Assembly (NCBI RefSeq): GCF_058153355.1
Contig: NZ_CM177019.1
DNA length: 64,000 bases
Direction: 5' to 3' (one strand)
Of the stretch, positions 24,631 to 40,143 are shown one piece after another. Positions within the stretch are counted from its first letter, which is position 1. The number at the start of each line of letters is the position of its first letter. A model generated the notes under the pieces. It did no database searches. It saw only the letters and a program-made list of their open reading frames with translations, and had not been told where the DNA came from. Both the position numbers and the translations under genes were made by a program.

Positions 24631-27600
24631 TTAATGGAAAATGACGTCAGGTGCGCTTAACGCTTCACTCAAATCAAACGTATCGAGTTCGGCAAAAGTG
24701 ACAGATTTATTGTCACGGTACACTCGAAGAGAACGGAAGCTCATTAGCGCTTTGCTATCAGCACTGTAGTGGTTAAAACCGGGTGAAAACTTAAGGACCA
24801 GCCGATACTCGCCCAGGTCATAGACACATGCGTCCTCAAAACCTGACTCCCAGCCTTTGTATCGCATTCCCATAAGTTGCCCAACGGTTGCGGATTTACC
24901 TTCCCAGCGAGTCAGGCTGTTACTGGCTGACTCGTCAGGTGTGAGCAGCACTGTGCGCCGCATCAACTGGCGAAAAGGCGGCATAATTTCGTAATCGGCA
25001 AAAACCTGTGCAAATTCACTGCGCATTTCTGCTGTCATTTCTAACGGGTGGGCAATGCCAATCAGAGCATCCGCAGGCAGGTCAATTGGCTCATCTTGTG
25101 CGTTGCAGAACTCCCCCTCAGCGGCCACGCGAAAGGCGTTGAGTAAACGACGCGGTTCATTTGCCGGATAAACCGCCCATATTAATCGCTGAGTAACCAG
25201 GCGAGTAAAGGGATGATTAACAAACAGAGAATGAAAATCTGCCAGCGACCAGCGTCGGGTGGTGCGTAGGGCAGTTTCAAGACGCGGGAGCAGGTTTTTG
25301 CTCACCTGAGTGGCATCTTTTTTTAGCCCTTTTAGTCGGGCCAGTGCCTCGGGTGCTTTCAGCTGATCGTCATCGGCGCGCAACCGGGGAACACTTTTCT
25401 GGCGAACGTTTTGCTGATCAAAGATAACCGGGTTGAGGTTTTCATCGAAGCGAACGGTAAACTGCCGGGGTCCAAAATCAAATATCAACGCCTGCGGATC
25501 ATCCAGGCCCAGTGTTGGGACTAATCTGTCCGCTAACTCTTCCTGGCTTAGTCCACGATTTTCTGCGACCACCTGAAGAAATTCCGCCGCGTTATCACGT
25601 AAGGGACGGGATTTCGCCCGTTGCGATATATGATGCAGCTGTATCAGCGCCATATCATTATTCATCAGGGTAAGTATGTTCAGGCCACTGACGGCGCGGG
25701 CAGATTTGCCTTCCTGTGGCCAGGCGAGGATCTGTGTTGTCAGATCCCGAGCCGTGCTTTCGTCACCAAAGAGACTTAACGCCAAAAAAGCCCAGTTGTC
25801 TTTTGCGGGGGCGCCAGCCTGTTGCCAGGCGGTGAAGAGATCCCAGGCAAAAGCGGCCAGCGTTTGTGGCTGGCAGAACGTTTTCAGTTGTTCCAGCCCA
25901 CAATAAAAACGTCCGCCCTGGGTAAAGCGCAGCATTTCGCCGATAATTTCCAGAGCATCATCAGTAACATGTTGATTATTCGTGATAATTCTCGGTCTGG
26001 ACCACATTGTCGGATGCCAGAAATCAGGGGCTTTGGGAATGCGTGCCGGGTAAATGTCCATTGGACCCTGTTTAAGTAATTGCTCCAGGGCAGGCCATAC
26101 ATCTGTATGCTGCCAGCGGTTTGCCACGGTTTGCAGTAATTCGCCATGCCCTTGTTCATACAGTAAACGCAGAGCGCTGAGTGCCGCTTCGCTGTTATCG
26201 CCAGACCTGGCAAAGATTAATGGGATCAGCGCCGTAGCCGTATGCTCCGGCCATTGTAAAATCCACTGGCGAGCCAGATTACGCTGGCCCGCAAAACGAT
26301 GCCAGACGCGGGCAACGGGCAGCGCCAGTTCTGTTGCGCCAAAATGAATCAGCAGCGGAAATATCTCTTTGGGATGTCGGGCAAAGGCGGTGATTAATCC
26401 GGGCAAAGCATCGGTACCCAGGACACTTAACAGATATTCTACCCCGGTGTAATGAAAATCAGCCGCGACAATTTGTTGCCAGCACGATACCGCCATTTCG
26501 CGCGGCATTTGCGCGATAAGATACAGGTTCCATACTCCCCAACGCTTTTCATCAGTGTAATTAAATTTGCGTTGGAAAGTTCGCCACCCCTCCATCAACG
26601 CAACACTATCTTGTGCCAGTAATGCGCTGGCGGCCTCTTCCCGGTAGTGTTTATTTTCATTCTGTTTTGCCTGATAATTGAGCAATCTTCCTACTGAAGT
26701 ATGTGTCTCTAGTTGATCGGTATCCAGAGCATCCAATTGTCCTTTGAGAATAAACTCATTAAACTTCCACCTGTGATCTTCAAAACCTAATTCCCGCAAG
26801 AAGGTATCCGCCCCTCTGTTAGCAAGACGTTCGTCAAAAGACATGGCGCTAAAATGGTCAATTGCAGTTTGCTGTTCCGGCGTCCAGTGTTTATTCGGCG
26901 ACCTGTACGCTTGCGGTACAAGCGTAAGTTCAGGTAGCGAAAAGTGAGTTATGGAAGCCTTTTTCCTGCCACGCCACGGTGGTGAAACGAGGATTTCAGG
27001 CAGACTACTGTTATCGGTGCTATCAATAACCGGTTTTGGCGAAGCCGATAAATAACTATTCACCACTGCCCGGGCTTGAGTACTTAACGACGGGATCACC
27101 TCTTCTGCCAGTTGTGGCTGCGATGCCATCAGCGTTTGTAACAGCGTACGCCAGTATTCATCACGTGCTTTTTGCTGTGCAGGCAGCTTTTTGTCTTCGA
27201 TGATAGGATAACCAGGGCGCGTAGGGGGGGCTTTTAACGCCAGTAGTTCTGCCAGTGCGGCGAGCGTCGCATGGGGAAAGTTTTTACTGTATTTAGCCAC
27301 ACGCTGCAGGCTGGGTTTGTTTTTATCGGCAACTAACAGCAAGATGCGAATAACTTGCGGATGGTTAATTTGTACCAGCAGGCTACCGCAATCTTCTTTA
27401 TGGGCATACATCGCGAGGCGTGGAACGGCTGCAATTCCTTGTTCGCGCAAAAGGGCGGCGCAGGCCGCGTAGCCGAAGTGGTTTTCATGCGACATGTAGC
27501 TGGCTTCGCGATCGCTAAATATATCCTGGCTCCAGTAGCGTTCGAGTTTTCTCACCGCTCTGGGGTCATTAGCAACAACTTTTAACCACTCCTTAGAATG

Positions 27601-28287
27601 AAAATGAGTCCGCGGGCATTCAAGGCCTACCAACTCATTGGCGATTTCTGGTTTCTCCGGGAGGATGAGTGCAATAAAAGGACGGCGAACTTGGGGTAGT
27701 CCTGGCAGTGCGGCAATGAGTTTGTCGGCGCAACGCTGCCAGCAGCTTTCCTCTGCCAGAGAGAGAGGCTTACGCAGTCGGAGATCGAATTCGTTATAGG
27801 TTTCTGAGCGATAACCATAACCATAGCCATAGTCCTCCTTCTGATACTGCAATGTTACTACCAGAGGATCGTTCTCATAACACCGCGCAATAAACTGGCG
27901 TGCAATCACCACCTCAGTCGCATATTCCAGCCCCTCTTGTTGGACGATTTCGTCGAGCAACTGTTGGCTGTCATTTTGCGCGATACAGGCTAGCGCCGCC
28001 ATTGTCCGGGCCGGAATTGAGGGTTTGTGCTCGCCGATCAAGTTGATGGCTTGCGTAATGGCCGACTGCCACTCCAGTGAAAAATTTTCATAACGCCAGA
28101 CAATGTTTTTTTTCTTCTCAGCAATGTGTAGCAATTTATCACCCAGTGTCTGGATGAGGCTTTCAGTGATAACAGGCACCGGTTCGCCCGGCCAATTGCG
28201 ATGGCTGAGTGGTGTTTTGCCTTTTTTATATTTCAGTTCCAGTTGGGCGTTATCCGCCAGCCACGGTAATTCCTTGTCCATGCTCAT
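24631..28287 (-). CDS. yehI: Very large DUF4132-family protein, paralog of the two upstream MolR-like ORFs but lacking their N-terminal WGR-like domain
   Basis: 1218-aa ORF; central and C-terminal regions align visibly with the two upstream paralogs (for example …DFGPRQFTV.FDE.L.P… and …FADYE..PPF.QL…). Start lies 3 nt after the upstream gene's stop. Confidence 0.8.
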   Translation of the reverse strand: MSMDKELPWLADNAQLELKYKKGKTPLSHRNWPGEPVPVITESLIQTLGDKLLHIAEKKKNIVWRYENFSLEWQSAITQAINLIGEHKPSIPARTMAALACIAQNDSQQLLDEIVQQEGLEYATEVVIARQFIARCYENDPLVVTLQYQKEDYGYGYGYRSETYNEFDLRLRKPLSLAEESCWQRCADKLIAALPGLPQVRRPFIALILPEKPEIANELVGLECPRTHFHSKEWLKVVANDPRAVRKLERYWSQDIFSDREASYMSHENHFGYAACAALLREQGIAAVPRLAMYAHKEDCGSLLVQINHPQVIRILLLVADKNKPSLQRVAKYSKNFPHATLAALAELLALKAPPTRPGYPIIEDKKLPAQQKARDEYWRTLLQTLMASQPQLAEEVIPSLSTQARAVVNSYLSASPKPVIDSTDNSSLPEILVSPPWRGRKKASITHFSLPELTLVPQAYRSPNKHWTPEQQTAIDHFSAMSFDERLANRGADTFLRELGFEDHRWKFNEFILKGQLDALDTDQLETHTSVGRLLNYQAKQNENKHYREEAASALLAQDSVALMEGWRTFQRKFNYTDEKRWGVWNLYLIAQMPREMAVSCWQQIVAADFHYTGVEYLLSVLGTDALPGLITAFARHPKEIFPLLIHFGATELALPVARVWHRFAGQRNLARQWILQWPEHTATALIPLIFARSGDNSEAALSALRLLYEQGHGELLQTVANRWQHTDVWPALEQLLKQGPMDIYPARIPKAPDFWHPTMWSRPRIITNNQHVTDDALEIIGEMLRFTQGGRFYCGLEQLKTFCQPQTLAAFAWDLFTAWQQAGAPAKDNWAFLALSLFGDESTARDLTTQILAWPQEGKSARAVSGLNILTLMNNDMALIQLHHISQRAKSRPLRDNAAEFLQVVAENRGLSQEELADRLVPTLGLDDPQALIFDFGPRQFTVRFDENLNPVIFDQQNVRQKSVPRLRADDDQLKAPEALARLKGLKKDATQVSKNLLPRLETALRTTRRWSLADFHSLFVNHPFTRLVTQRLIWAVYPANEPRRLLNAFRVAAEGEFCNAQDEPIDLPADALIGIAHPLEMTAEMRSEFAQVFADYEIMPPFRQLMRRTVLLTPDESASNSLTRWEGKSATVGQLMGMRYKGWESGFEDACVYDLGEYRLVLKFSPGFNHYSADSKALMSFRSLRVYRDNKSVTFAELDTFDLSEALSAPDVIFH

Positions 28288-28290
28288 TCC

Positions 28291-31200
28291 TTATTCAAAC
28301 AGGGCTTCGATGTCGTTAATTAACTCGCTAGCGGTGATGTCATCGAGTGCGGAGAACTGCGCTTCCTGTGTTGAATTAATCCCCCAGCCATAGCTTTCTG
28401 CTTTGCCTTCCCATAGCCACAGCTTGCTTAAGAGTTGCTCGGCACTGAGTTCGGCTGGCGACATACCAACTGCAAATCCTTCATCGATTTCCATGATTAA
28501 TGACCAGCGGCCCAGAGGTTTGATCATCCAGCCGATCCAGCCACCGTCCTGCGGTTCACCACGCATCCAGCCTTTATTCGCCAGCCCCATTACCCGACCG
28601 CTCGGGCATTTTCTGCCTGCCCAGCGGGTCAATTCGCTGGCATTGCGCTCGGTTTCTGTCAGGGCGTAACTGTTACGGTCGAGCTGGCGGAACGGCGGTA
28701 GCAGTTCGTAGTCGGCAAAAAGCTGACCAAAGGCGGCAGCATCCGTGGGTGATATTTCCAGAACGTGAGGAATGCCAACAGAGATATCGCCTTCCGGCAG
28801 GGTGAAAAGATCATCGTCAGCGGTGCTGTAGCTGTTATCTTCCGCCACACGGAAGCACGCCAGTAACTGGTTGTCTGCGCTATAAATGCCCCAAATCAGA
28901 CGGCGGGTTAAGTGGCAGACCAGCGGATGCTCAACCAGAAAGAGCTGAAAGTTTTCTGGCGACCAGCGGCGGCGCAGGCACATGGCGGATTCCAGCCTTG
29001 CCACCTGCTGGGCGGCAACGGTACGCGCATCTTTTTTCAGCAGTTTGTAGCGGTTAACTGCATCGTTCGCTTGAGTTTCATCATCGCTTTTGTTCGGTTT
29101 AGGCAAGTCTTTCAGGCGGCTGCCGGAAGCATCACGCACAAACGGTTTTAAGGTTTCATCAAAGCTGACGGTGAACTGCCGTGGCCCGAAATCCAGCAGC
29201 AGCGAACCGTTATCATCCAGACCGAGATCCGGTGCTAACCGGTCTTCAAGCTCCGCCACCGTGAGTTCGCGGCTCTCGGCAATGTCGGCAATTTTTTCTT
29301 TTGCCCGCTCCTGTAATGCTTTGAATTTCAGTTTCTGGGCGATGCCGTTAAGCTGCATCAGGGCGATATCACTACCGATAGCAGCGAGAATATCCAGCCC
29401 GACGGTGGCGCGTTTATGCTGGGATTCACCAGGCCAGGCGCGAATCAAAGGCGTCAGTTTGCGGGCGGTATCATCGTTGCCGAGAACACCTAACGCAGTG
29501 AACGCCCAGCTTTCTTTCGACGGTGCGCCAGCGGTCTGCCAGGCGGTAAACAGATCCCAGGCAAATTCAGCCAGTGAGTCGGCGGTACAGGCATCTTTCA
29601 CCTGCAATAACCCCGCATACAGAGCCTCTTCCTGAGGGAAGCGGAGCATTTCACCGAGGTGGAGGAGGGCGTTATCTGGCAGTGATTGGGCGTTTGCTTT
29701 TAATACCGGGCGTGTCCAGAGCGATGGCTGATAAAAGGCCGGAAGTGTCGGGATTTTAGTCGGGTGATTATCTAAGGGATCGAGCGCAAGTAGAGCGTTC
29801 ACCGCATCGGTTACTTCCGGCTGGTTATAACGCTGGGCGATTTCTTGCAGTAATGACGGATAACCACTTTCAATCAACATACGTAAGGCGGCGCGGGCGT
29901 TATCCTGGGCTTCACCAGCTTTGCCGAGTGCCGCAGGCAACAGGCCGATAATGGCATGTTCCGGATATTTCAGCAGCCAGGTGCGGGCGTCTTGTCGTAG
30001 AGTTTTGAGTTTGTTAAAGGCGCGGGCGACGGCAGGAGCCAGTTCCGTTGCGGCAAAATAATTAGCAACCGCAAAACCTTCTTGAGGGTAGCGTGAAAAC
30101 GAGTGTAGAAAACCACTCATACCTGCCAGTCGCAAATAAAGCATGACAGGTTTTACCGCGGTATGCGGCTCTTTGCTGAGAAACTCCCATAGTTTAATCG
30201 CTGTTTGCATAGGTAAAAAGGGAAGTGAGTTGAGATGCCACTCCCCCTGATACGGTGCATGGTGGGCTTTAAACATTTGGATGAGTGTAGCGAAGTCCTC
30301 ACGTTCCCATGCGTCAATTGCCGAGTCAGAAGCGCCGATATATTTATATGTGTCAAAATCCCAGCGGCGATACCCCAGCGAGTAAAGGAAATCTTTAGCA
30401 CCTTCACCTGGCTTATGCGATTCCCAGTCCCAATGAGTTTGAAACTCTTTTGCTTCTGTGTCGGTTATTGTGCATATGGATTTGAGTTTGAGCGGTGCTA
30501 AATCCAACACCGGAATCGTCGATTTTTTCTTTTTCGAAAGCCAGGGAGGTAAGACTAATACGGCTGGCAGTAGAGCGGCGCAGGCATGGTTTGACGGTTG
30601 TATCAGTTGTTGCTGGCATGATTTCAGCACTTCAACTGCGGCTGTCGAGAGCCAGGGAGTGACCTGTTCTGCCAGTGCCGGTTGCGAGATAAGCATCGTC
30701 ATTAGCATAATGCGCCAAGTATTCTCTTCTTTTTGCGCAAGAAGTTCCGCCAGTGCCGCCAGTGCTGCGTGTGGGAACGCAGCGCAAGCTTTCGTCATCC
30801 GATCGTGACAGCGTTTAGTTTGCCCGGCTACACGTATGAGCAGTGTTAATGCGAACGGATGATTGATATGACGCAATACATCTGCGCAGTAGTCACTTGC
30901 GGCATAGGGAGCAAATCTGGGCAGGGCTGCAACACCTTGCTCCTGTAATACGGTGGCTGACAATATCGCACCACAATAGTAATCATCAAAAATGGCATAT
31001 GGCTCGTGATATTTTTCTAATGAGGCAAGAATGTGCTCATCAGTCGCCACTATTTTTAGCCACTCAAGCGAGGGTAATTTTTTTTTCCCCAGTAGACGCT
31101 GGGCAATTTCATGTGCAATTTCTGGTTTTTCGGGTAATAACAAAGCAATTAATGGTTGCCGCCATTCTGGAATATGTGGAATTGCGGCAATAAGTTTTTG

Positions 31201-32079
31201 TGCACATTTTTGCCAGAGAGACTCTTCCGCCAGTGATAAATGTTTCCGTAGGCGTAATTCAAAACTGGAATATTGCTGCAGGTTATCAGGTGCAATACCA
31301 GACGGCAGAATAATAATGGTATTATTCGCATAATCCCATTCAATATCAATCTGTTGAAGATGTATTACTACATCAGTAGCATATTCCAGGCCACCTTCCT
31401 GAACGAGCTGATCCATAACATCCTCACGCTCTTTATATCTCGTGCACTTCAGTTCAAGTGCCGTGAGTACAGCCATTACTGGTGATGGTAACTGTGTTGT
31501 TTTCAGGCAGTCGATCTGACTGAGCGCCTGGGAGATGGCGTTTTGCCATTCTAAAGAACAGGCGCTGAAGTCAAATGTGGCTGTTTTATTATCCCGTTGC
31601 AACACGCTACAGGCTAAGCGGCGTAACTGGGTCAATTCGTCTGCTTGCTGAACAGGAACTCCGGGAAAGCGGCGATGGCTTAACGTGGTGTGTACAACTT
31701 CGGGCGGAAAAACGACAGCAATATCTTTCGCCAGCCACGGTAAAACATCATCTGTATTTTTGTCAGCCACACGGGCTTCTGCTACGCAAAAGGGTTGTTC
31801 CTGAATAATGGTGGATAAGGCCGCTACCTTGAGAGAATCCGTTACCGTTTGGGAAGGTTGCAAAGAATTATCCTTCGCTTGCCCCACATACCCCTTCTTC
31901 ACCTTCTCCGCAATCAGCCTCAGTTCCGCTTTTTCCGCCGCCGCAGCATCAGCAAAGCTTTTTACCTGGCTTTGCCCGTTGGTACTGACTTTGCCCCAAC
32001 TAATATGCAGCTCGTTTCCCTGTTGCTCCACTGCCCAGAATTTATGTGATTTTTCGTCCTGATAAATATAGGTTTTCAT
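28291..32079 (-). CDS. MolR/YehH-family protein: N-terminal WGR-like domain plus DUF4132-type body (paralog A)
   Basis: 1262-aa ORF starting MKTYIYQDEKSHKFWAVEQQGNELHISWGKV…; ends …SVLDDITASELINDIEALFE. Its ribosome-binding site (AAGGAA) overlaps the stop of paralog B. Confidence 0.8.
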   Translation of the reverse strand: MKTYIYQDEKSHKFWAVEQQGNELHISWGKVSTNGQSQVKSFADAAAAEKAELRLIAEKVKKGYVGQAKDNSLQPSQTVTDSLKVAALSTIIQEQPFCVAEARVADKNTDDVLPWLAKDIAVVFPPEVVHTTLSHRRFPGVPVQQADELTQLRRLACSVLQRDNKTATFDFSACSLEWQNAISQALSQIDCLKTTQLPSPVMAVLTALELKCTRYKEREDVMDQLVQEGGLEYATDVVIHLQQIDIEWDYANNTIIILPSGIAPDNLQQYSSFELRLRKHLSLAEESLWQKCAQKLIAAIPHIPEWRQPLIALLLPEKPEIAHEIAQRLLGKKKLPSLEWLKIVATDEHILASLEKYHEPYAIFDDYYCGAILSATVLQEQGVAALPRFAPYAASDYCADVLRHINHPFALTLLIRVAGQTKRCHDRMTKACAAFPHAALAALAELLAQKEENTWRIMLMTMLISQPALAEQVTPWLSTAAVEVLKSCQQQLIQPSNHACAALLPAVLVLPPWLSKKKKSTIPVLDLAPLKLKSICTITDTEAKEFQTHWDWESHKPGEGAKDFLYSLGYRRWDFDTYKYIGASDSAIDAWEREDFATLIQMFKAHHAPYQGEWHLNSLPFLPMQTAIKLWEFLSKEPHTAVKPVMLYLRLAGMSGFLHSFSRYPQEGFAVANYFAATELAPAVARAFNKLKTLRQDARTWLLKYPEHAIIGLLPAALGKAGEAQDNARAALRMLIESGYPSLLQEIAQRYNQPEVTDAVNALLALDPLDNHPTKIPTLPAFYQPSLWTRPVLKANAQSLPDNALLHLGEMLRFPQEEALYAGLLQVKDACTADSLAEFAWDLFTAWQTAGAPSKESWAFTALGVLGNDDTARKLTPLIRAWPGESQHKRATVGLDILAAIGSDIALMQLNGIAQKLKFKALQERAKEKIADIAESRELTVAELEDRLAPDLGLDDNGSLLLDFGPRQFTVSFDETLKPFVRDASGSRLKDLPKPNKSDDETQANDAVNRYKLLKKDARTVAAQQVARLESAMCLRRRWSPENFQLFLVEHPLVCHLTRRLIWGIYSADNQLLACFRVAEDNSYSTADDDLFTLPEGDISVGIPHVLEISPTDAAAFGQLFADYELLPPFRQLDRNSYALTETERNASELTRWAGRKCPSGRVMGLANKGWMRGEPQDGGWIGWMIKPLGRWSLIMEIDEGFAVGMSPAELSAEQLLSKLWLWEGKAESYGWGINSTQEAQFSALDDITASELINDIEALFE

Positions 32080-32091
32080 TGCTAATTCCTT

Positions 32092-35000
32092 TTAATTAAA
32101 CAGTGATTCAATGTCGTTAATCAGCTCGCTGGCGGTGATGTCGTCGAGTACGGAGAAAGTGGGTGAGGATTGCTTACCATAGCGATCATAAGGGGCGATG
32201 ATTTTTACGCTTTCGACAGGCAGCAGGTCGCTATACCCCGTTTCGCCATAAATTAATGAAAAAGGTTCTGTTTCAAGTTCGAGAGCGCCATAAGGGGTAG
32301 ATTTGCGCATCGCATAGACGCTGCCGCTTTCTTCCAGACGTTGCCAGCCTCTGCGTTCCAGCCCGACAATGCGTCCGGCCTGGCAGAGACGTCCGTTCCA
32401 GCGTGACAATTCATGGACATTACGTTCGTTATCAGCAAGGTGGTAACTACCACGTTCGAGCTGTTGGAAGGGGGGAAGCAGTTCGTAATCAGCGTAAATT
32501 TGCCTGAATGCAGCGACAGATTCAGGGGGGATTTCCAGCATATGCGGAATACCGATGTTTCCTGCTGGTAGCGTGAATAGCTCATCCTGCATATCGCTGT
32601 AAGTGCTGTCTTCTGCGACCCGGAAGCAGGCAATCAGCGTGTTTTCCTCAGTATATACTCCCCATAACAGCCGTCGGGTTAAGTGACGTACCAGCGGATG
32701 CTCCACCAGAAACAGGCGGAACTGTTCTGCCGTCCAGCGTCTGCGCTGGCACATAGCCTGCTCCAGACGATCAATCTGCTGACTGGCAATGGCGCGCACA
32801 TCTTTCTTCAATTGTTTGAAGAGGTTAACGGCGTCAGTTGCCAGTGTTTTATCATCGCTCTGATTTGGTTTGGGTAAATCTTTCAGGACTTTGCCGTTTG
32901 CATCGCGCACTACAGGTTTTAAGGTTTCGTCAAAACCAACGGTGAATTGACGTGGGCCGAAATCCAGTATCAGCGAGCCACTGCTATCAAGCCCTAAATC
33001 TGGAGCCAGGCGGTCTTCCAGTTCAGCCATTGTCAGTCCGCGATTTTCGGCGACCATATTGATTTTGTCGCGGGCGTGTTCCTGCAATGCTTTGAATTTA
33101 ATTTTTTGTGCAATGCCATTAAGCAGCATCAGCGCAATATCGCTACCGATACTGGCTAACACATCCAGCCCAGAAACCGCACGTTTATGCTGGGATTCAC
33201 CCGGCCAGACCCGGATAAGCGGGGTTAGTTTACGCGCGGTGTCGTCATTGCCTAAAATCCCCAGCGAGGTAAATGCCCAGTTTTCTTTTGCGGGCGCGCC
33301 AGATTCCATCCATGCCGTGTAGAGATCCCAGCCAAAGTCAGCCAGTGATTCCCGGGTGAAGGTCTCTTTGATGATCGCCAGCCCAGCGTAGGAGGTAATG
33401 TCGCGTGGAAAGCTCAATATTGTGCCCAGGTGGCGCATAGCGTCATCGGGCAGAGGCAGGTTGTTACTTTTAAGCCGTGGTCTGCGCCATAAGGTGAACT
33501 GATAAAAGCCGGGCAGTGGGGCGATTTTTGCAGGATATTCTTCCAGTGGATCGCTATCGAACAATGTTGCCAGCGCAGCTAAAACATCAGGTTGATTATA
33601 TCCCCGGGCGATTTCCTCAATCGTTTCTCGCTGGTTTAAATTCACCAGCAGGCGAAGCGCCTGGCGGGCACAATCACGATCTTTTCCTTTTTTGCCCAGG
33701 GCCACAGGAAGTAGCCCGGCGGCGGCATGGTGTGGGAAGTTAGCCAGCCATTTTCGGGCATCTTCATAAGACATTTTTTTCTGTAATCGCTGCGCCATCG
33801 GTAATGCTAATTCGCTGACGCCCAGGAAAAGGGTGAATATCCACAACTGTTGTGGCTTACGTTGCAGACATTTCATAAACGCAGGAATGGCCGCATCACC
33901 AAAAATCGCCAGAATTTCTCTCTCGCCGGAGAATTGCTCTTCATTAATTATTTGATTGAGAAAAGAAATAGCATGCTGAGTGGGTAGGAAGCAGAGCGCG
34001 TACAACTGCCAGTGTCTGCTTCCTTTATTATGGTATTGCGCAAACTCTGCTTTCAGCGCGGGGAAATCGAAACGTAACAGGGCCTCAACTGCGCTTTGTG
34101 GCATTATTTTTTTTTCGTATTGTTCTTCTCCGGTTCTGCTCCATTCCTTAAACCCCAGTCGCCAAAGGATTTGCTGTTCTGGCGTTAAAGGGATGAAAGA
34201 CGTTTCCCAGCTTTCCTTTTCAATTAGTGGCAGATCGGTAAATAAGGTTTGCTGTGATGCCTGATATTTCGCGATTTCACTGAATCTGGATATGTCAGTG
34301 TGACTGATTAACTCTGTAATTCCAGGTGTGATGTCAGTGACGGAAGGGATGGGAAGTACCGGTAAATCAAATACGGGTATTACATTCTTTTTCTTATTTA
34401 TTGCCCACGGTGGAGCGACAAGCAGTTCTGGCAACATATTCGCAGTGGCATACTCACATTCTTTAGCTACTGACTGAGGACGACATTCAGATAAGATGCC
34501 TGCCGCTTTAGCATTAACCCAGGGAATGACGTCGCGTACTAACTCTGGCGTGACGGTAACCAGTTTGACAAGCGCGTTGCGCCACTGTGCATCTTCATGT
34601 ATTGCCAGCAAAGTAGCATAAGCGGCAATAGCCGCAGCGGGATGTTTTTGGCAGGCTTTGCTTAAGTATTCCAGGTGCTTTTTCTTGCCATTTACACCGA
34701 GGATCAGAATTTGAATCGCATCCGGGTGATTCGTTTTCCATAGCCATTTGACAAGATCTTCAGTCTCGCTGATGCGCTCGAAGAGATAAGTGGGATTGTC
34801 AGAATGCTCTTCCGTAAACTCAGTAAGTATCCGGCTTACACCGCGCCCCCCATTATTTGCCAGCAACATTGCCAGATAAGCGCGAAAATCACGATACAAC
34901 GGTGGGAAGTCGTATTTTTCTGCTGTAGTCAGAGCTATATCATCGGTTACTACCACTCTTAACCAGGTTATCGCCGGAACGTTTTGGTCTGCATAGCGTA

Positions 35001-35889
35001 GAGCCATAGCATTGGCAATATCCGGGCGTTCAGGGAGCAGTAACGCGGCAAAAGGTTGCCGTGCTGGGGATAGCGTCGGAATAGCAGTAAGCACTTTATC
35101 CACACAGCGTTGCCACTCATCTTCTGAAGCGAGTGAAAGATGATGACATAGACGTTGATGCCAACTCGGTAGCGATTCTGCTTCGTGATTAGGTGGAATG
35201 ATGGTGGTTACTGCGCCTTTTACTGGTTTATATTTGAGTTGAAGAGCGAGAAGGGCGATTTCAACGGCACTTTCCAGACCACAGCGAATGACTAAGTCAT
35301 CGACCAGTTCATCTTGAGAGTAAGAGTTCCAAAAGCCCCAGAGCAATGCCGCATCAGATTGCGCACTCCCTGTCTGTTTATTACCCAGAATTCGCATTTG
35401 TACCTCAGCAAAAGCCTGCTGCCAGTTTTCTGGATAAGAACGGTAATTGTTGTCGGGGTCATATGCCCTGGTGTTATTCGCGATGCGCTTCCATATTTGA
35501 CCATCTTTGTGCAGATAATTGATATCTCTGGGGCGAGAGCGATGTGGAAAAGCAAATCGGTTAATATCGTCGGTTAGCGGAATGACTGCATCATCAGCCA
35601 GCCATGGGCGTTTGTTTTTACTCTCGGGTGAAGTTTTAACGTCAGGAGTGACTTTGGTGACGGGGGATATATGCACGTTTGCCGAAGCGTCTTCCACATA
35701 GCCTTTTTTCGTTTTCTCTGCGATAAGCTTCAGTTCCGCTTTTTCCGCTGCTGCAGCATCAGCAAAATTTTTTACCTGGCTTTGCCCTTGGGTACCAACT
35801 TTTCCCCAACTGATATGCAAATCGTTACCTTGCTGCTCCACCGCCCAGAATTTATGCGATTTTTCGTCCTGAAAGATAAAGTGTCTCAT
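32092..35889 (-). CDS. MolR/YehH-family protein: N-terminal WGR-like domain plus DUF4132-type body (paralog B)
   Basis: 1265-aa ORF starting MRHFIFQDEKSHKFWAVEQQGNDLHISWGKV…; same architecture as paralog A, with a diverged middle and near-identical termini. Confidence 0.8.
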   Translation of the reverse strand: MRHFIFQDEKSHKFWAVEQQGNDLHISWGKVGTQGQSQVKNFADAAAAEKAELKLIAEKTKKGYVEDASANVHISPVTKVTPDVKTSPESKNKRPWLADDAVIPLTDDINRFAFPHRSRPRDINYLHKDGQIWKRIANNTRAYDPDNNYRSYPENWQQAFAEVQMRILGNKQTGSAQSDAALLWGFWNSYSQDELVDDLVIRCGLESAVEIALLALQLKYKPVKGAVTTIIPPNHEAESLPSWHQRLCHHLSLASEDEWQRCVDKVLTAIPTLSPARQPFAALLLPERPDIANAMALRYADQNVPAITWLRVVVTDDIALTTAEKYDFPPLYRDFRAYLAMLLANNGGRGVSRILTEFTEEHSDNPTYLFERISETEDLVKWLWKTNHPDAIQILILGVNGKKKHLEYLSKACQKHPAAAIAAYATLLAIHEDAQWRNALVKLVTVTPELVRDVIPWVNAKAAGILSECRPQSVAKECEYATANMLPELLVAPPWAINKKKNVIPVFDLPVLPIPSVTDITPGITELISHTDISRFSEIAKYQASQQTLFTDLPLIEKESWETSFIPLTPEQQILWRLGFKEWSRTGEEQYEKKIMPQSAVEALLRFDFPALKAEFAQYHNKGSRHWQLYALCFLPTQHAISFLNQIINEEQFSGEREILAIFGDAAIPAFMKCLQRKPQQLWIFTLFLGVSELALPMAQRLQKKMSYEDARKWLANFPHHAAAGLLPVALGKKGKDRDCARQALRLLVNLNQRETIEEIARGYNQPDVLAALATLFDSDPLEEYPAKIAPLPGFYQFTLWRRPRLKSNNLPLPDDAMRHLGTILSFPRDITSYAGLAIIKETFTRESLADFGWDLYTAWMESGAPAKENWAFTSLGILGNDDTARKLTPLIRVWPGESQHKRAVSGLDVLASIGSDIALMLLNGIAQKIKFKALQEHARDKINMVAENRGLTMAELEDRLAPDLGLDSSGSLILDFGPRQFTVGFDETLKPVVRDANGKVLKDLPKPNQSDDKTLATDAVNLFKQLKKDVRAIASQQIDRLEQAMCQRRRWTAEQFRLFLVEHPLVRHLTRRLLWGVYTEENTLIACFRVAEDSTYSDMQDELFTLPAGNIGIPHMLEIPPESVAAFRQIYADYELLPPFQQLERGSYHLADNERNVHELSRWNGRLCQAGRIVGLERRGWQRLEESGSVYAMRKSTPYGALELETEPFSLIYGETGYSDLLPVESVKIIAPYDRYGKQSSPTFSVLDDITASELINDIESLFN

Positions 35890-36029: not shown

Positions 36030-38063
36030 TTATTTCACCTGATGACCCGGTTTAGCACCGGCATCCGGGCTTAGCAGGAAAATATCTTTCCCGCCAGGAC
36101 CGGCAGCCATCACCATGCCTTCAGAGATACCGAAGCGCATTTTACGTGGTGCCAGGTTAGCCACCATAATGGTGTGACGACCAATCAGTGCCTGCGGATC
36201 CGGGTAGGCAGAACGAATGCCGGAGAAGACATTGCGTTTTTCACCGCCGAGATCCAGCGTCAGGCGCAGCAGTTTGTCAGAACCTTCAACAAACTCTGCG
36301 TTTTCGATCAACGCCACGCGCAGGTCAACTTTGGCGAAGTCGTCAAAGGTGATGGTTTCCTGAATCGGATCATCTGCCAGCGGGCCAGTAACTGGTGCGG
36401 CAGTGGCTTTCACTTCTTCTTTAGATGCTTCCACCAGTGCTTCAACCTGCTTCATGTCAATACGGTTATACAGTGCTTTGAACGGATTCACTTTATGGCC
36501 CAGCAGCGGTTGCTGGATACCATCCCAGGTCAGTTCCGTATTCAGGAATGCTTCCGCTCGTTCAGTCAGTTTCGGCAGTACCGGTTTCAGGTAGGTCATC
36601 AGCACGCGGAACAGGTTAATGCCCATCGAGCAAATCGCCTGCAGATCGGCATCGCGACCTTCCTGCTTCGCCACCACCCACGGAGCCTGTTCATCGACAT
36701 AGCGGTTAGCCAGATCAGCCAGCGCCATAATTTCGCGCACTGCTTTACCAAATTCGCGGCTTTCCCATGCTTCACCAATCACTTCAGCGGCATCCGTGAA
36801 GGTTTTGTACAACTGCGGGTCAGCCAGTTCGCTTGCCAACACGCCGTCAAAACGCTTGTTGATAAAGCCCGCGTTACGGGATGCCAGGTTTACAACCTTA
36901 TTAACGATATCGGCATTCACGCGCTGGACGAAATCCTCGAGATTGAGATCGATATCATCAATGCGCGAAGAGAGTTTCGCAGTGTAGTAGTAACGCAGGC
37001 TGTCAGCGTCAAAATGATTCAGCCAGGTGCTGGCTTTAATAAAGGTGCCGCGAGACTTGGACATCTTCGCGCCGTTCACCGTTACATAGCCGTGAACAAA
37101 CAGGTTGGTCGGCTTGCGGAAGTTGCTACCTTCCAACATGGCAGGCCAGAACAGGCTGTGGAAGTAAACAATATCTTTACCGATGAAGTGGTACAGCTCG
37201 GCGGTGGAGTCTTTCTTCCAGTATTCATCGAAGCTTACGCTGTCGCCGCGCTTGTCACACAGATTCTTGAAAGAACCCATGTAGCCAATCGGTGCGTCCA
37301 GCCAGACGTAGAAATATTTGCCCGGCGCGTTCGGAATTTCAAAACCGAAGTACGGTGCATCGCGGGAGATATCCCATTGTTGCAGGCCAGATTCAAACCA
37401 CTCCTGCATTTTGTTTGCCACCTGCTCCTGCAACGCACCGCTGCGGGTCCATGCCTGCAGCATTTCGCTGAAAGAGGGCAGATCAAAGAAGAAGTGTTCA
37501 GAATCACGCATTACCGGGGTAGCGCCAGAAACCACCGATTTCGGCTCGATCAATTCAGTCGGGCTATATGTTGCGCCGCAGACTTCACAGTTATCGCCGT
37601 ATTGATCCGGTGATTTACATTTCGGGCAGGTGCCTTTCACAAAACGGTCCGGCAGGAACATGCCTTTTTCCGGATCGTACAGTTGAGAGATGGTGCGGTT
37701 TTTAATAAAACCGTTTTCCTTCAGGCGAGTATAGATAAGTTCTGACAACTGGCGGTTCTCTTCGCTGTGCGTCGAGTGATAGTTGTCATAGCTGATGTTA
37801 AAGCCTGCAAAATCAGTCTGATGTTCCTGACTCATTTCGCCAATCATCTGCTCCGGAGTGATACCAAGCTGCTGAGCTTTCAGCATGATCGGTGTACCGT
37901 GGGCATCGTCGGCGCAGATGAAGTTGACCTCGTGGCCGCGCATTCGCTGGTAACGGACCCAGACATCAGCCTGGATGTGCTCCAGCATATGGCCGAGGTG
38001 GATTGAGCCGTTAGCGTACGGCAGTGCGCACGTCACCAGAATTTTCTTCGCGACTTGAGTCAT
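36030..38063 (-). CDS. metG: Methionyl-tRNA synthetase
   Basis: Class I aaRS HIGH motif (…NGSIHLGHM…), KMSKS motif, zinc-binding CPKC…CEVC knuckle; start at [10 protein letters not shown]…. Confidence 0.95.
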
Positions 38064-38194
38064 AGTAGGCATTACTTCTTAATAGTGAAAAGGGGTTAGA
38101 TAGTACCAAATGGGAAAATGTTAAGTAAGTACTTCTCTATATTCTTCAGGTAAACTATCAGCTGATGGTTTATCTATACAAAAAAGGAGTCGGG

Positions 38195-39376: not shown

Positions 39377-39566
39377 CCGCATTAATGAACACTTATTTAA
39401 TGCTGCGAATATTCTGCGGACCTTCGTCCGAAACTCTATAAAGTCGATTGATCGTACAGGCAATGCTTCATTATCATCCTTCGTGGCTGTGTAGTGGATG
39501 TACAGCTATAGTTTGTTATGCACTCATTCTATCCAGGCATAACCTTTACTACAGGGATAACGTTCA

Positions 39567-39848
39567 ATGAATAAGTACTGGCTGTCAGGAATTATTTTTC
39601 TTGCCTATGGAATGGCTTCTCCCGCGTTCTCTTCACAGACTGCCACATTAACGATTAATGGCAGGATCAGTCCCCCAACATGCAGTATGGCTATGGTTAA
39701 TGGTCAACCTCAACAGCATTGTGGTCAGTTAACGTATGATGTTGATACCCGTCATCAGGTTTCTTCGCCAGTCAAAGGTGTGACGACAGAAGTGGTTGTT
39801 GCAGGTAGTGATAGCAAACGTCGAATCGTGTTAAATCGCTACGATTAA
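39567..39848 (+). CDS. yehE: Small exported protein preceding the fimbrial operon
   Basis: 93-aa ORF with signal peptide (…LAYGMASPAFSSQTA). Confidence 0.7.
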   Translation: MNKYWLSGIIFLAYGMASPAFSSQTATLTINGRISPPTCSMAMVNGQPQQHCGQLTYDVDTRHQVSSPVKGVTTEVVVAGSDSKRRIVLNRYD

Positions 39849-39879
39849 TTTGCCACCCTGGTTTTTTAAGCGGATTTAG

Positions 39880-39925
39880 AAAGCTGAAATCATTCGTGTG
39901 AATGATTTCAGCTTTTTTATTGATA
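39880..39925 (+). terminator. Strong Rho-independent terminator after yehE
   Basis: aagctgaaatcattc/gaatgatttcagctt long stem followed by TTTTTTATTG. Confidence 0.6.
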
Positions 39926-40143
39926 TTAATAATACCATTTAAAAAAATCTGCATTAATTAATAGATGTGATAAATATTTAATATGCTTAAGTATTTGTTG
40001 TATTTATATTGCAATAGTTAATTTGTTTTAAATCAATAAAACAATATGTTTACATTGCGGCAACTTTTTTGATGTGAGAAATTTGTTTCCAAGAGATACA
40101 GACTCTTAACAACCAAAAAATAAATTTTATTAAGGAACATATT

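Follow-up and report, generated by a model that had tools for sequence, protein, structure and literature searches.

Results

Locus and identity profile

The window analyzed in this study comprises 64,000 nucleotides (nt) of contig NZ_CM177019.1 (assembly GCF_058153355.1) of an Escherichia coli-like genome; it carries the metG-proximal yeh locus, whose flanks are at most 97.9% identical to E. coli. Our subject is a tandem pair of paralogous genes in this locus, paralog A (28291-32079, 1262 amino acids) and paralog B (32092-35889, 1265 amino acids), both on the minus strand and located where an earlier reading made from the letters alone (the sequence-only reading) had placed them. Both open reading frames encode an N-terminal WGR domain (PF05406; residues 7-68 in A with E = 1e-14, residues 5-69 in B with E = 3.3e-18) and a DUF4132 domain (PF13569; residues 986-1171 in A with E = 6.7e-51, residues 999-1182 in B with E = 1.1e-50), as identified by Pfam searches with the first 1200 amino acids of each protein. 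The WGR head, which matches residues 3-70 of PDB entry 2ra8, was the sole match in the PDB by sequence, and no informative solved structure was found for A or B. Paralog B adjoins metG (36030-38072, minus strand), its conserved upstream neighbor, which served as baseline for divergence. On the other side, A is followed by paralog C (24631-28287, minus strand), which encodes a YehI-like protein of 1218 amino acids with DUF4132, a diverged tail and no WGR head, and further downstream by yehK and yehL-Q on the same strand. The stop codon of B and the start of A are separated by 12 nt, the stop codon of A and the start of C by 3 nt, and the ribosome-binding sites of A and C overlap the stop region of the respective upstream gene.

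The divergence between A and B is not uniform along the gene pair but strongly non-uniform, far beyond chance. In the heads, comprising codons 1-65 with the WGR domain (A 31885-32079, B 35695-35889), nt identity is 82.6% over 190 nt (31890-32079 versus 35700-35889), with 92/89/67% at the three codon positions, and amino acid identity is 85% at a proportion of synonymous differences (pS) of 0.53. The variable middles (A 29590-31872, residues ~70-830; B 33361-35682, residues ~70-843) share 46% nt and 35% amino acid identity (pS 0.77), which at the nt level is near random and effectively unalignable. Identity rises again to 70% in nt and 71% in amino acids (pS 0.68) in a conserved C-terminal block of 330 codons that covers the pre-DUF4132 region and DUF4132 (A 28600-29547, residues ~845-1160; B approximately 32374-33318) and is predicted to form a module of helical repeats and DUF4132 (AlphaFold2 model, predicted local distance difference test score 94). 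It is followed by a second divergent stretch (residues ~1175-1240; 47% nt, 30% amino acids, pS 0.62) and finally by the tail, the last 20 codons plus stop (A 28291-28353, B 32092-32154), which is the terminal helix of the C-terminal module in the same model and has 83% nt identity, 17 of 20 identical residues and a pS of 0.44; its start reads SALDD in A and SVLDD in B. The fraction of identical codons at identical amino acids, compared with the expectation from codon usage, is 0.63 versus 0.44 in the head, 0.78 versus 0.40 in the tail and 0.50 versus 0.38 in the C-terminal block.

The sequence-only reading had described a mosaic of two nearly identical ends and a barely alignable region behind the WGR domain. 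The mosaic is real and the middle is as described, but the profile has four alternations of conserved and variable stretches, so that the picture of two ends against a middle was too simple and missed both the C-terminal block and the second divergent stretch. The heads had been put at about 90% DNA identity, which is too high, and the last ~16 codons, given as nearly identical, are similar but fall short of that description.

Grouping of heads and bodies

Klebsiella provided a cross-genus test. Loci of K. oxytoca (L025, L027) and K. spallanzanii (L028) were found by a search of representatives together with contig look-ups; a single-protein scan of genome contigs returned five loci, all from close relatives plus Erwinia. 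The Klebsiella layout, namely metG, two WGR-DUF4132 genes, a yehI-like gene and then yehL onward, matches the window, and the order metG, WGR-DUF4132 genes, yehI-yehK-yehL(MPQ) is the same in E. coli records and Klebsiella. Body comparisons give 61-62% identity between window A and both the second K. oxytoca gene and the first K. spallanzanii gene, 56% between window B and the first K. oxytoca gene (L025 9001-12738), and 45% between A and B. Orthologues of the A body are the body of K-12 molR, a pseudogene, the second K. oxytoca gene and the single Erwinia gene. In neighbor-joining trees on codon alignments with bootstrap, the middle grouped by paralog type (1.00/1.00; by genus 0.00) and so did the C-terminal block (0.83/0.42; by genus 0.02), whereas the head tree on all codon positions grouped by genus, with all Escherichia A and B heads together (0.94), and by paralog type at 0.00. 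Codon usage was considered as the driver of this grouping and rejected, because amino acids (0.82) and codon positions 1+2 (0.96) gave the same outcome, again with 0.00 by type. Head pS was 0.34-0.53 between the paralogs of one genome but 0.67-0.77 between cross-genus orthologues, and the proportion of nonsynonymous differences (pN) was 0.05-0.08 versus 0.135-0.17. Across the genera, MetG is 94% identical in amino acids, the bodies 56-61%. Since bodies group by type and heads by genus, the A/B duplication is older than the split of Escherichia and Klebsiella, and after that split the heads became homogenised within each lineage.

Within Escherichia, we compared 11 distinct A heads, 13 B heads and 6 heads of single-gene loci from E. 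coli, E. whittamii, Escherichia sp. E1V33 and E. albertii. Over the 195 nt of the head there were 0 fixed differences and 24 shared polymorphisms between the A and B sequences. In the homogenised core of the head, gene nt ~19-162 (window 31918-32061 in A, 35728-35871 in B), divergence was 0.111 between and 0.096 within paralogs. The corresponding values for the C-terminal block were 0.27-0.36 and 0.08-0.10, and most windows of this block had 4-12 fixed differences per 60 nt together with some shared polymorphisms. Nearly fixed sites in the head were restricted to nt 7, 11, 15 and 186, all of which lie at the edges of the homology block. The diversity of metG among 15 E. coli loci (window 36030-38063) was 3.5% on average with a maximum of 5%; this mean gave the impression of being high for a housekeeping gene and may reflect linkage to the hypervariable neighbor or the deliberately diverse sampling.

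Chimeric single genes

E. coli K-12 and six other single-gene E. coli carry one gene between metG and yehI, and in all seven it combines a B-type 5' end with an A-type body. Two-parent fitting placed the breakpoints in three windows (nt 161-176, 123-128 and 110-152), all within the WGR region, with three distinct donors of the B head. In TUM14697, nt 1-110 are identical to a B head and have 14 mismatches to the best A head, and beyond nt 127 the gene has 10 mismatches to A versus 95 to B. The single gene of K-12 is 92-98% identical to window A after nt ~160. The chimeras are the products that would be expected of crossovers between the two heads, and they arose more than once or were later reshuffled. 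A full-length B gene of the window type (at least 80% covered) is present in 1629 of 5426 complete E. coli genomes (~30%).

Tail

The tails of A and B in Escherichia diverge by 0.142 between and 0.079 within paralogs and share 8-9 polymorphisms, including a linked GAA-CTC haplotype and a common Asp/Ala polymorphism; fixed differences between A and B occur only at codons -5 and -2. The A-B divergence of 0.14 stands against 0.26 and 0.20 to the Klebsiella orthologues. The last five codons track paralog type in both genera, with Ser-Leu-Phe-Asp in B and Ala/Gly-Leu-Phe-Glu in A. Together, these patterns suggest that a tail interior of ~45 nt may occasionally be converted in Escherichia, although 20 codons are too short to prove it.

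Family-wide constraint

Among 8786 homologues (representatives, E ≤ 1e-3), the best match of nearly all distant ones spans the C-terminal ~500 residues to the last residues, and a second matched stretch at the head is common. The WGR head and the tail motif LDxIxxSELxxDxExL are retained in the retrieved homologues of ~40% identity and in the single gene of Erwinia rhapontici, and the Ser-Glu pair of the tail (S472, E473) does not vary in any of 59 sequences. Taken in windows of 30 residues, A-B identity and conservation across 147 homologues are correlated (Spearman 0.79, p = 5e-10). At the protein level, the mosaic thus mostly reflects an ordinary constraint that the whole family shares and that acts on the WGR domain, the C-terminal module and the terminal helix; in this respect the sequence-only interpretation needs correction. 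However, constraint alone is insufficient for the head. Head and tail lie above the trend, with a family conservation of ~0.5, an identity of A to Erwinia of 0.60-0.62 and an A-B identity of 0.85, whereas windows of like family conservation elsewhere have an A-B identity of only 0.23-0.57; over the body the order is reversed, and A is nearer to Erwinia than to B. Among alleles, pN/pS was 0.28-0.38 in the middle versus 0.06-0.17 in the C-terminal block, in all cases below 1.

Variable bodies

The A position in E. coli is occupied by at least two body classes (A1 and A2) with ~57% nt identity over gene nt ~150-1200 (versus L009, L010, L017 and L024), and the alleles part abruptly at nt ~175-195. 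The locus is hypervariable within one species. A transposon has been described in the "metG/DUF4132/yeh region" of ST131 (PMC9334617).

Several individual loci add to the range of arrangements. A further divergent A segment lies at nt ~1500-2000 in K-12, O104 and CUVET16-394. In wlxctx60 (L024 8001-11741), the metG-adjacent gene has a third, unrelated middle; its megablast match to window B comprises only the 66-nt tail (95.5%), and gene nt ~2659-2957, within its C-terminal module, resemble A with 7-8% divergence. In EC42405 (L001 9802-13611), A is 98-100% identical to window A and B is a mosaic of 60-100% identity in 150-nt windows, which shows that alleles recombine inside B. The A gene of Escherichia sp. 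E1V33 (L004 13814-16846) has an in-frame internal deletion and encodes 1010 amino acids, with head, DUF4132 and tail retained. In K. spallanzanii (L028 5248-12630), the first gene has an A-type body, 82% identical in amino acids to the second gene of K. oxytoca, and the second gene represents a fourth body type, 48-50% identical to all others. As this arrangement differs from that of K. oxytoca, order and content of the pair are not fixed within Klebsiella. A contig of 2847 nt labelled as a metagenome-assembled genome (MAG) of Collinsella sp. (L005) carries a B-type gene whose protein shares 88% identity with that of window B and is most likely Escherichia DNA that was mis-binned into an actinobacterial MAG. 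Beyond metG in the window, the G+C content falls to 0.378 at 39500-39999 (500 nt), compared with ~0.5 around it.

Discussion

We propose that A and B are ancient tandem paralogs and that their mosaic is probably the combined result of family-wide purifying selection and recombination between the paralogs, the latter evident at the head and suggested for the tail. Recombination between the paralogs is well supported at the head, where the concerted evolution that the sequence-only reading had suspected is borne out by the clustering by genus, by the absence of fixed differences between A and B and by chimera junctions that fall inside the head. Purifying selection acts throughout the family and covers the WGR head, the C-terminal ~500 residues including DUF4132 and the terminal helix; the middle is free to diverge and is hypervariable. 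Exchange of heads and crossovers in heads, both found in our comparison, would proceed by non-allelic homologous recombination between direct-repeat copies 3.8 kb apart. Non-crossover events, i.e. gene conversion, would let A and B trade interior stretches of the ~190-nt head block, so that the heads of one genus become more alike than true orthologues. Crossovers in the same block would delete the B body and the A head and leave a single chimera of B head and A body, as in K-12 and the other single-gene strains. The tracts are presumably bounded by the edges of the homology block, which would be the reason why paralog-specific markers survive only at these edges. The events would be RecA-dependent and limited by mismatches, and sequence divergence would thus keep them infrequent and account for the lack of a recent tract in this genome. 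No dedicated recombinase, reverse transcriptase or silent donor cassettes were found in the window or in the annotated E. coli and Klebsiella loci, which contain only metG, DUF4132 genes, yehK and yehL-Q. Replacement of whole middles with breakpoints in conserved blocks is suggested by the several unrelated body types per position and by the K. spallanzanii arrangement; it would be complementary to conversion, and in this sample the two are not cleanly separable.

The profile could also be read as purifying selection and nothing else, with the ends as the most constrained parts and no DNA moved between the paralogs. The family conservation profile does predict the A-B profile, head and tail motif are conserved at ~40% identity, and the synonymous divergence of the window pair is substantial in both head and tail. 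However, constraint cannot produce heads that group by genus on bodies that group by type, cannot bring both pS and pN down to half of their values between cross-genus orthologues, and can neither erase all fixed differences in the head nor make chimeras of B head and A body. At equal family conservation, moreover, A-B identity is 0.83 in the head and far lower elsewhere. Already contradicted by the incongruent trees, selection alone is a quite improbable explanation. Constraint on the DNA itself, exerted by a nucleotide-level element such as an mRNA structure, translational coupling or an internal promoter at the junction of B tail and A head, would suit the short gene gaps and the overlap of ribosome-binding sites with stop regions. 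But a coupling signal would span only ~15 nt, and since head synonymous sites are near saturation across the genera, a lasting DNA-level constraint on the head is excluded; we give such an element practically no chance.

A different scenario holds that heads and tails are resident and vertically inherited, while the middles are old alleles or modules that were swapped in as cassettes from other strains or species by recombination in the conserved blocks. Unrelated body types at one position, such as A1 and A2 or the wlxctx60 gene that matches window B only in the tail, fit this scenario, as do the A-type body in the first position and the fourth type in K. spallanzanii, the abrupt divergence of alleles behind the head and the mosaic B alleles of strains with nearly identical A. 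Yet Escherichia and K. oxytoca share the order of A- and B-type bodies, the divergence of the bodies relative to MetG is as expected of fast vertical evolution and not of recent transfer, and the shared head polymorphisms and deletion chimeras require pairing of A and B anyway. Cassette replacement is compatible with the explanation that we prefer; by itself we consider it unlikely. Still less credible, to the point of being very improbable, is a duplication that took place recently in Escherichia, after which the B middle would have diverged very fast and head and tail would have kept their young age. A long B branch could mimic the greater nearness of the A body to Erwinia than to B, but the B-type gene of K. 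oxytoca groups with Escherichia B and the A-types of both genera group together. The sequence-only reading was thus right to set aside a recent whole-gene duplication, as K. oxytoca has one orthologue of the A-type body and another of the B-type body (bootstrap 1.00).

Several points weigh against selection plus inter-paralog recombination or narrow its reach. The bootstrap interval of pS in the window head (0.34-0.71) overlaps that of the C-terminal block (0.60-0.75), the interval of the tail is wide (0.13-0.80), and the pS test alone is weak. The two window heads differ at 33 of 195 nt, the largest divergence of any head pair in the sample. Their longest perfect run is 19 nt, compared with up to 53 nt in other strains; the pair of this genome thus shows no recent exchange, and its tracts are old. 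A Sawyer-type permutation test on run lengths in the head speaks for exchange, with p < 0.05 for 42 of 143 A-B pairs, but these pairs are non-independent. A and B heads are still weakly differentiated (nearest-neighbor statistic Snn 0.83, p = 0.0015), and the A-B head distances within genomes are not consistently below those between genomes; most strains thus give no sign of very recent conversion. Shared synonymous polymorphism can partly come from recurrent mutation. The conversion claimed earlier for the tail agrees with the lower A-B than orthologue divergence in Escherichia and with the shared polymorphisms, but the tails of K. oxytoca differ by 0.32, and the 20-codon tree, which groups neither by type nor by genus, resolves nothing. 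RecA dependence and the recombination machinery are what we infer from the pattern. The sample is small (~30 Escherichia genes, two Klebsiella species and one Erwinia), and all trees are neighbor-joining trees.

Regarding function, no PADLOC match at E ≤ 0.01 was found among eight locus proteins, the only NCBIfam match, to a Leptospira family, was at the WGR level and far below the cut-off, and the literature searched contained no functional or evolutionary study of the WGR-DUF4132 (MolR/YehH-like) family. "Molybdate metabolism regulator" is an old annotation name for which no experimental paper was found in the same literature, and the term "sensing module" that the WGR domain had received in the sequence-only reading is unsupported. 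The exchange of heads says nothing of what the A and B proteins do. As a speculation that we regard as doubtful, the yeh locus might be an uncharacterised sensor of the biological-conflict type, composed of WGR-DUF4132 paralogs whose helical middle is hypervariable, the MoxR-type ATPase YehL, a DUF5682 protein, a VWA protein and YehQ. Under the same doubtful assumption, head and C-terminal module might serve as recombination handles through which paralogs and strains shuffle, lose and regain their variable middles, a shuffling that might have left the concerted evolution of the head as its footprint.

Our findings explain how a highly polymorphic and so far poorly understood locus of E. coli is structured, in which K-12 "molR" is a recombinant of two ancient paralogs and the copy number of one or two genes is probably set by crossovers inside a domain-coding block of 190 nt. 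Annotation and pangenome pipelines that rely on the N-terminus will mis-assign orthology here. The locus is also a clean natural case in which the edges of homology blocks appear to limit conversion tracts, with markers left only at head nt 7-15 and 186 and in the last five codons of the tail. As a process this is a new instance of something known, domain-limited concerted evolution, clear but fairly ordinary.

The closest relative in terms of locus and family is the molR pseudogene (b2115-b2117)/yehI locus of K-12, where the molR body has its intact counterpart in window A and YehI corresponds to C. K-12 differs in having one gene instead of two, a recombinant of B head and A body with its junction at nt ~161-176 that, unlike window A, is also broken by frameshifts and stops. 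Concerted evolution by RecA-dependent gene conversion is known from tufA/tufB in Salmonella and E. coli and from rRNA operons. As in these systems, paralogs within a lineage are more alike than orthologues between lineages, and no dedicated machinery is needed. In contrast to them, homogenisation at the yeh locus is confined to a domain block of ~190 nt, perhaps together with a tail block of ~45 nt, in genes of 3.8 kb that are otherwise paralog-specific; the copies are tandem direct repeats, and the homogenisation is loose (83-90%) where that of tufA/tufB and rRNA operons is near-perfect. Rhs and other polymorphic-toxin loci and the clusters of NLR immune receptors also consist of conserved and hypervariable modules that recombine into chimeras. 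By analogy, the conserved blocks of A and B flank a hypervariable segment, unequal crossing-over would lead to chimeras and copy-number variation, and many divergent alleles coexist in one species. Unlike those systems, the A and B proteins have neither a toxin/immunity pair nor an NTPase domain, and their variable segment is internal.

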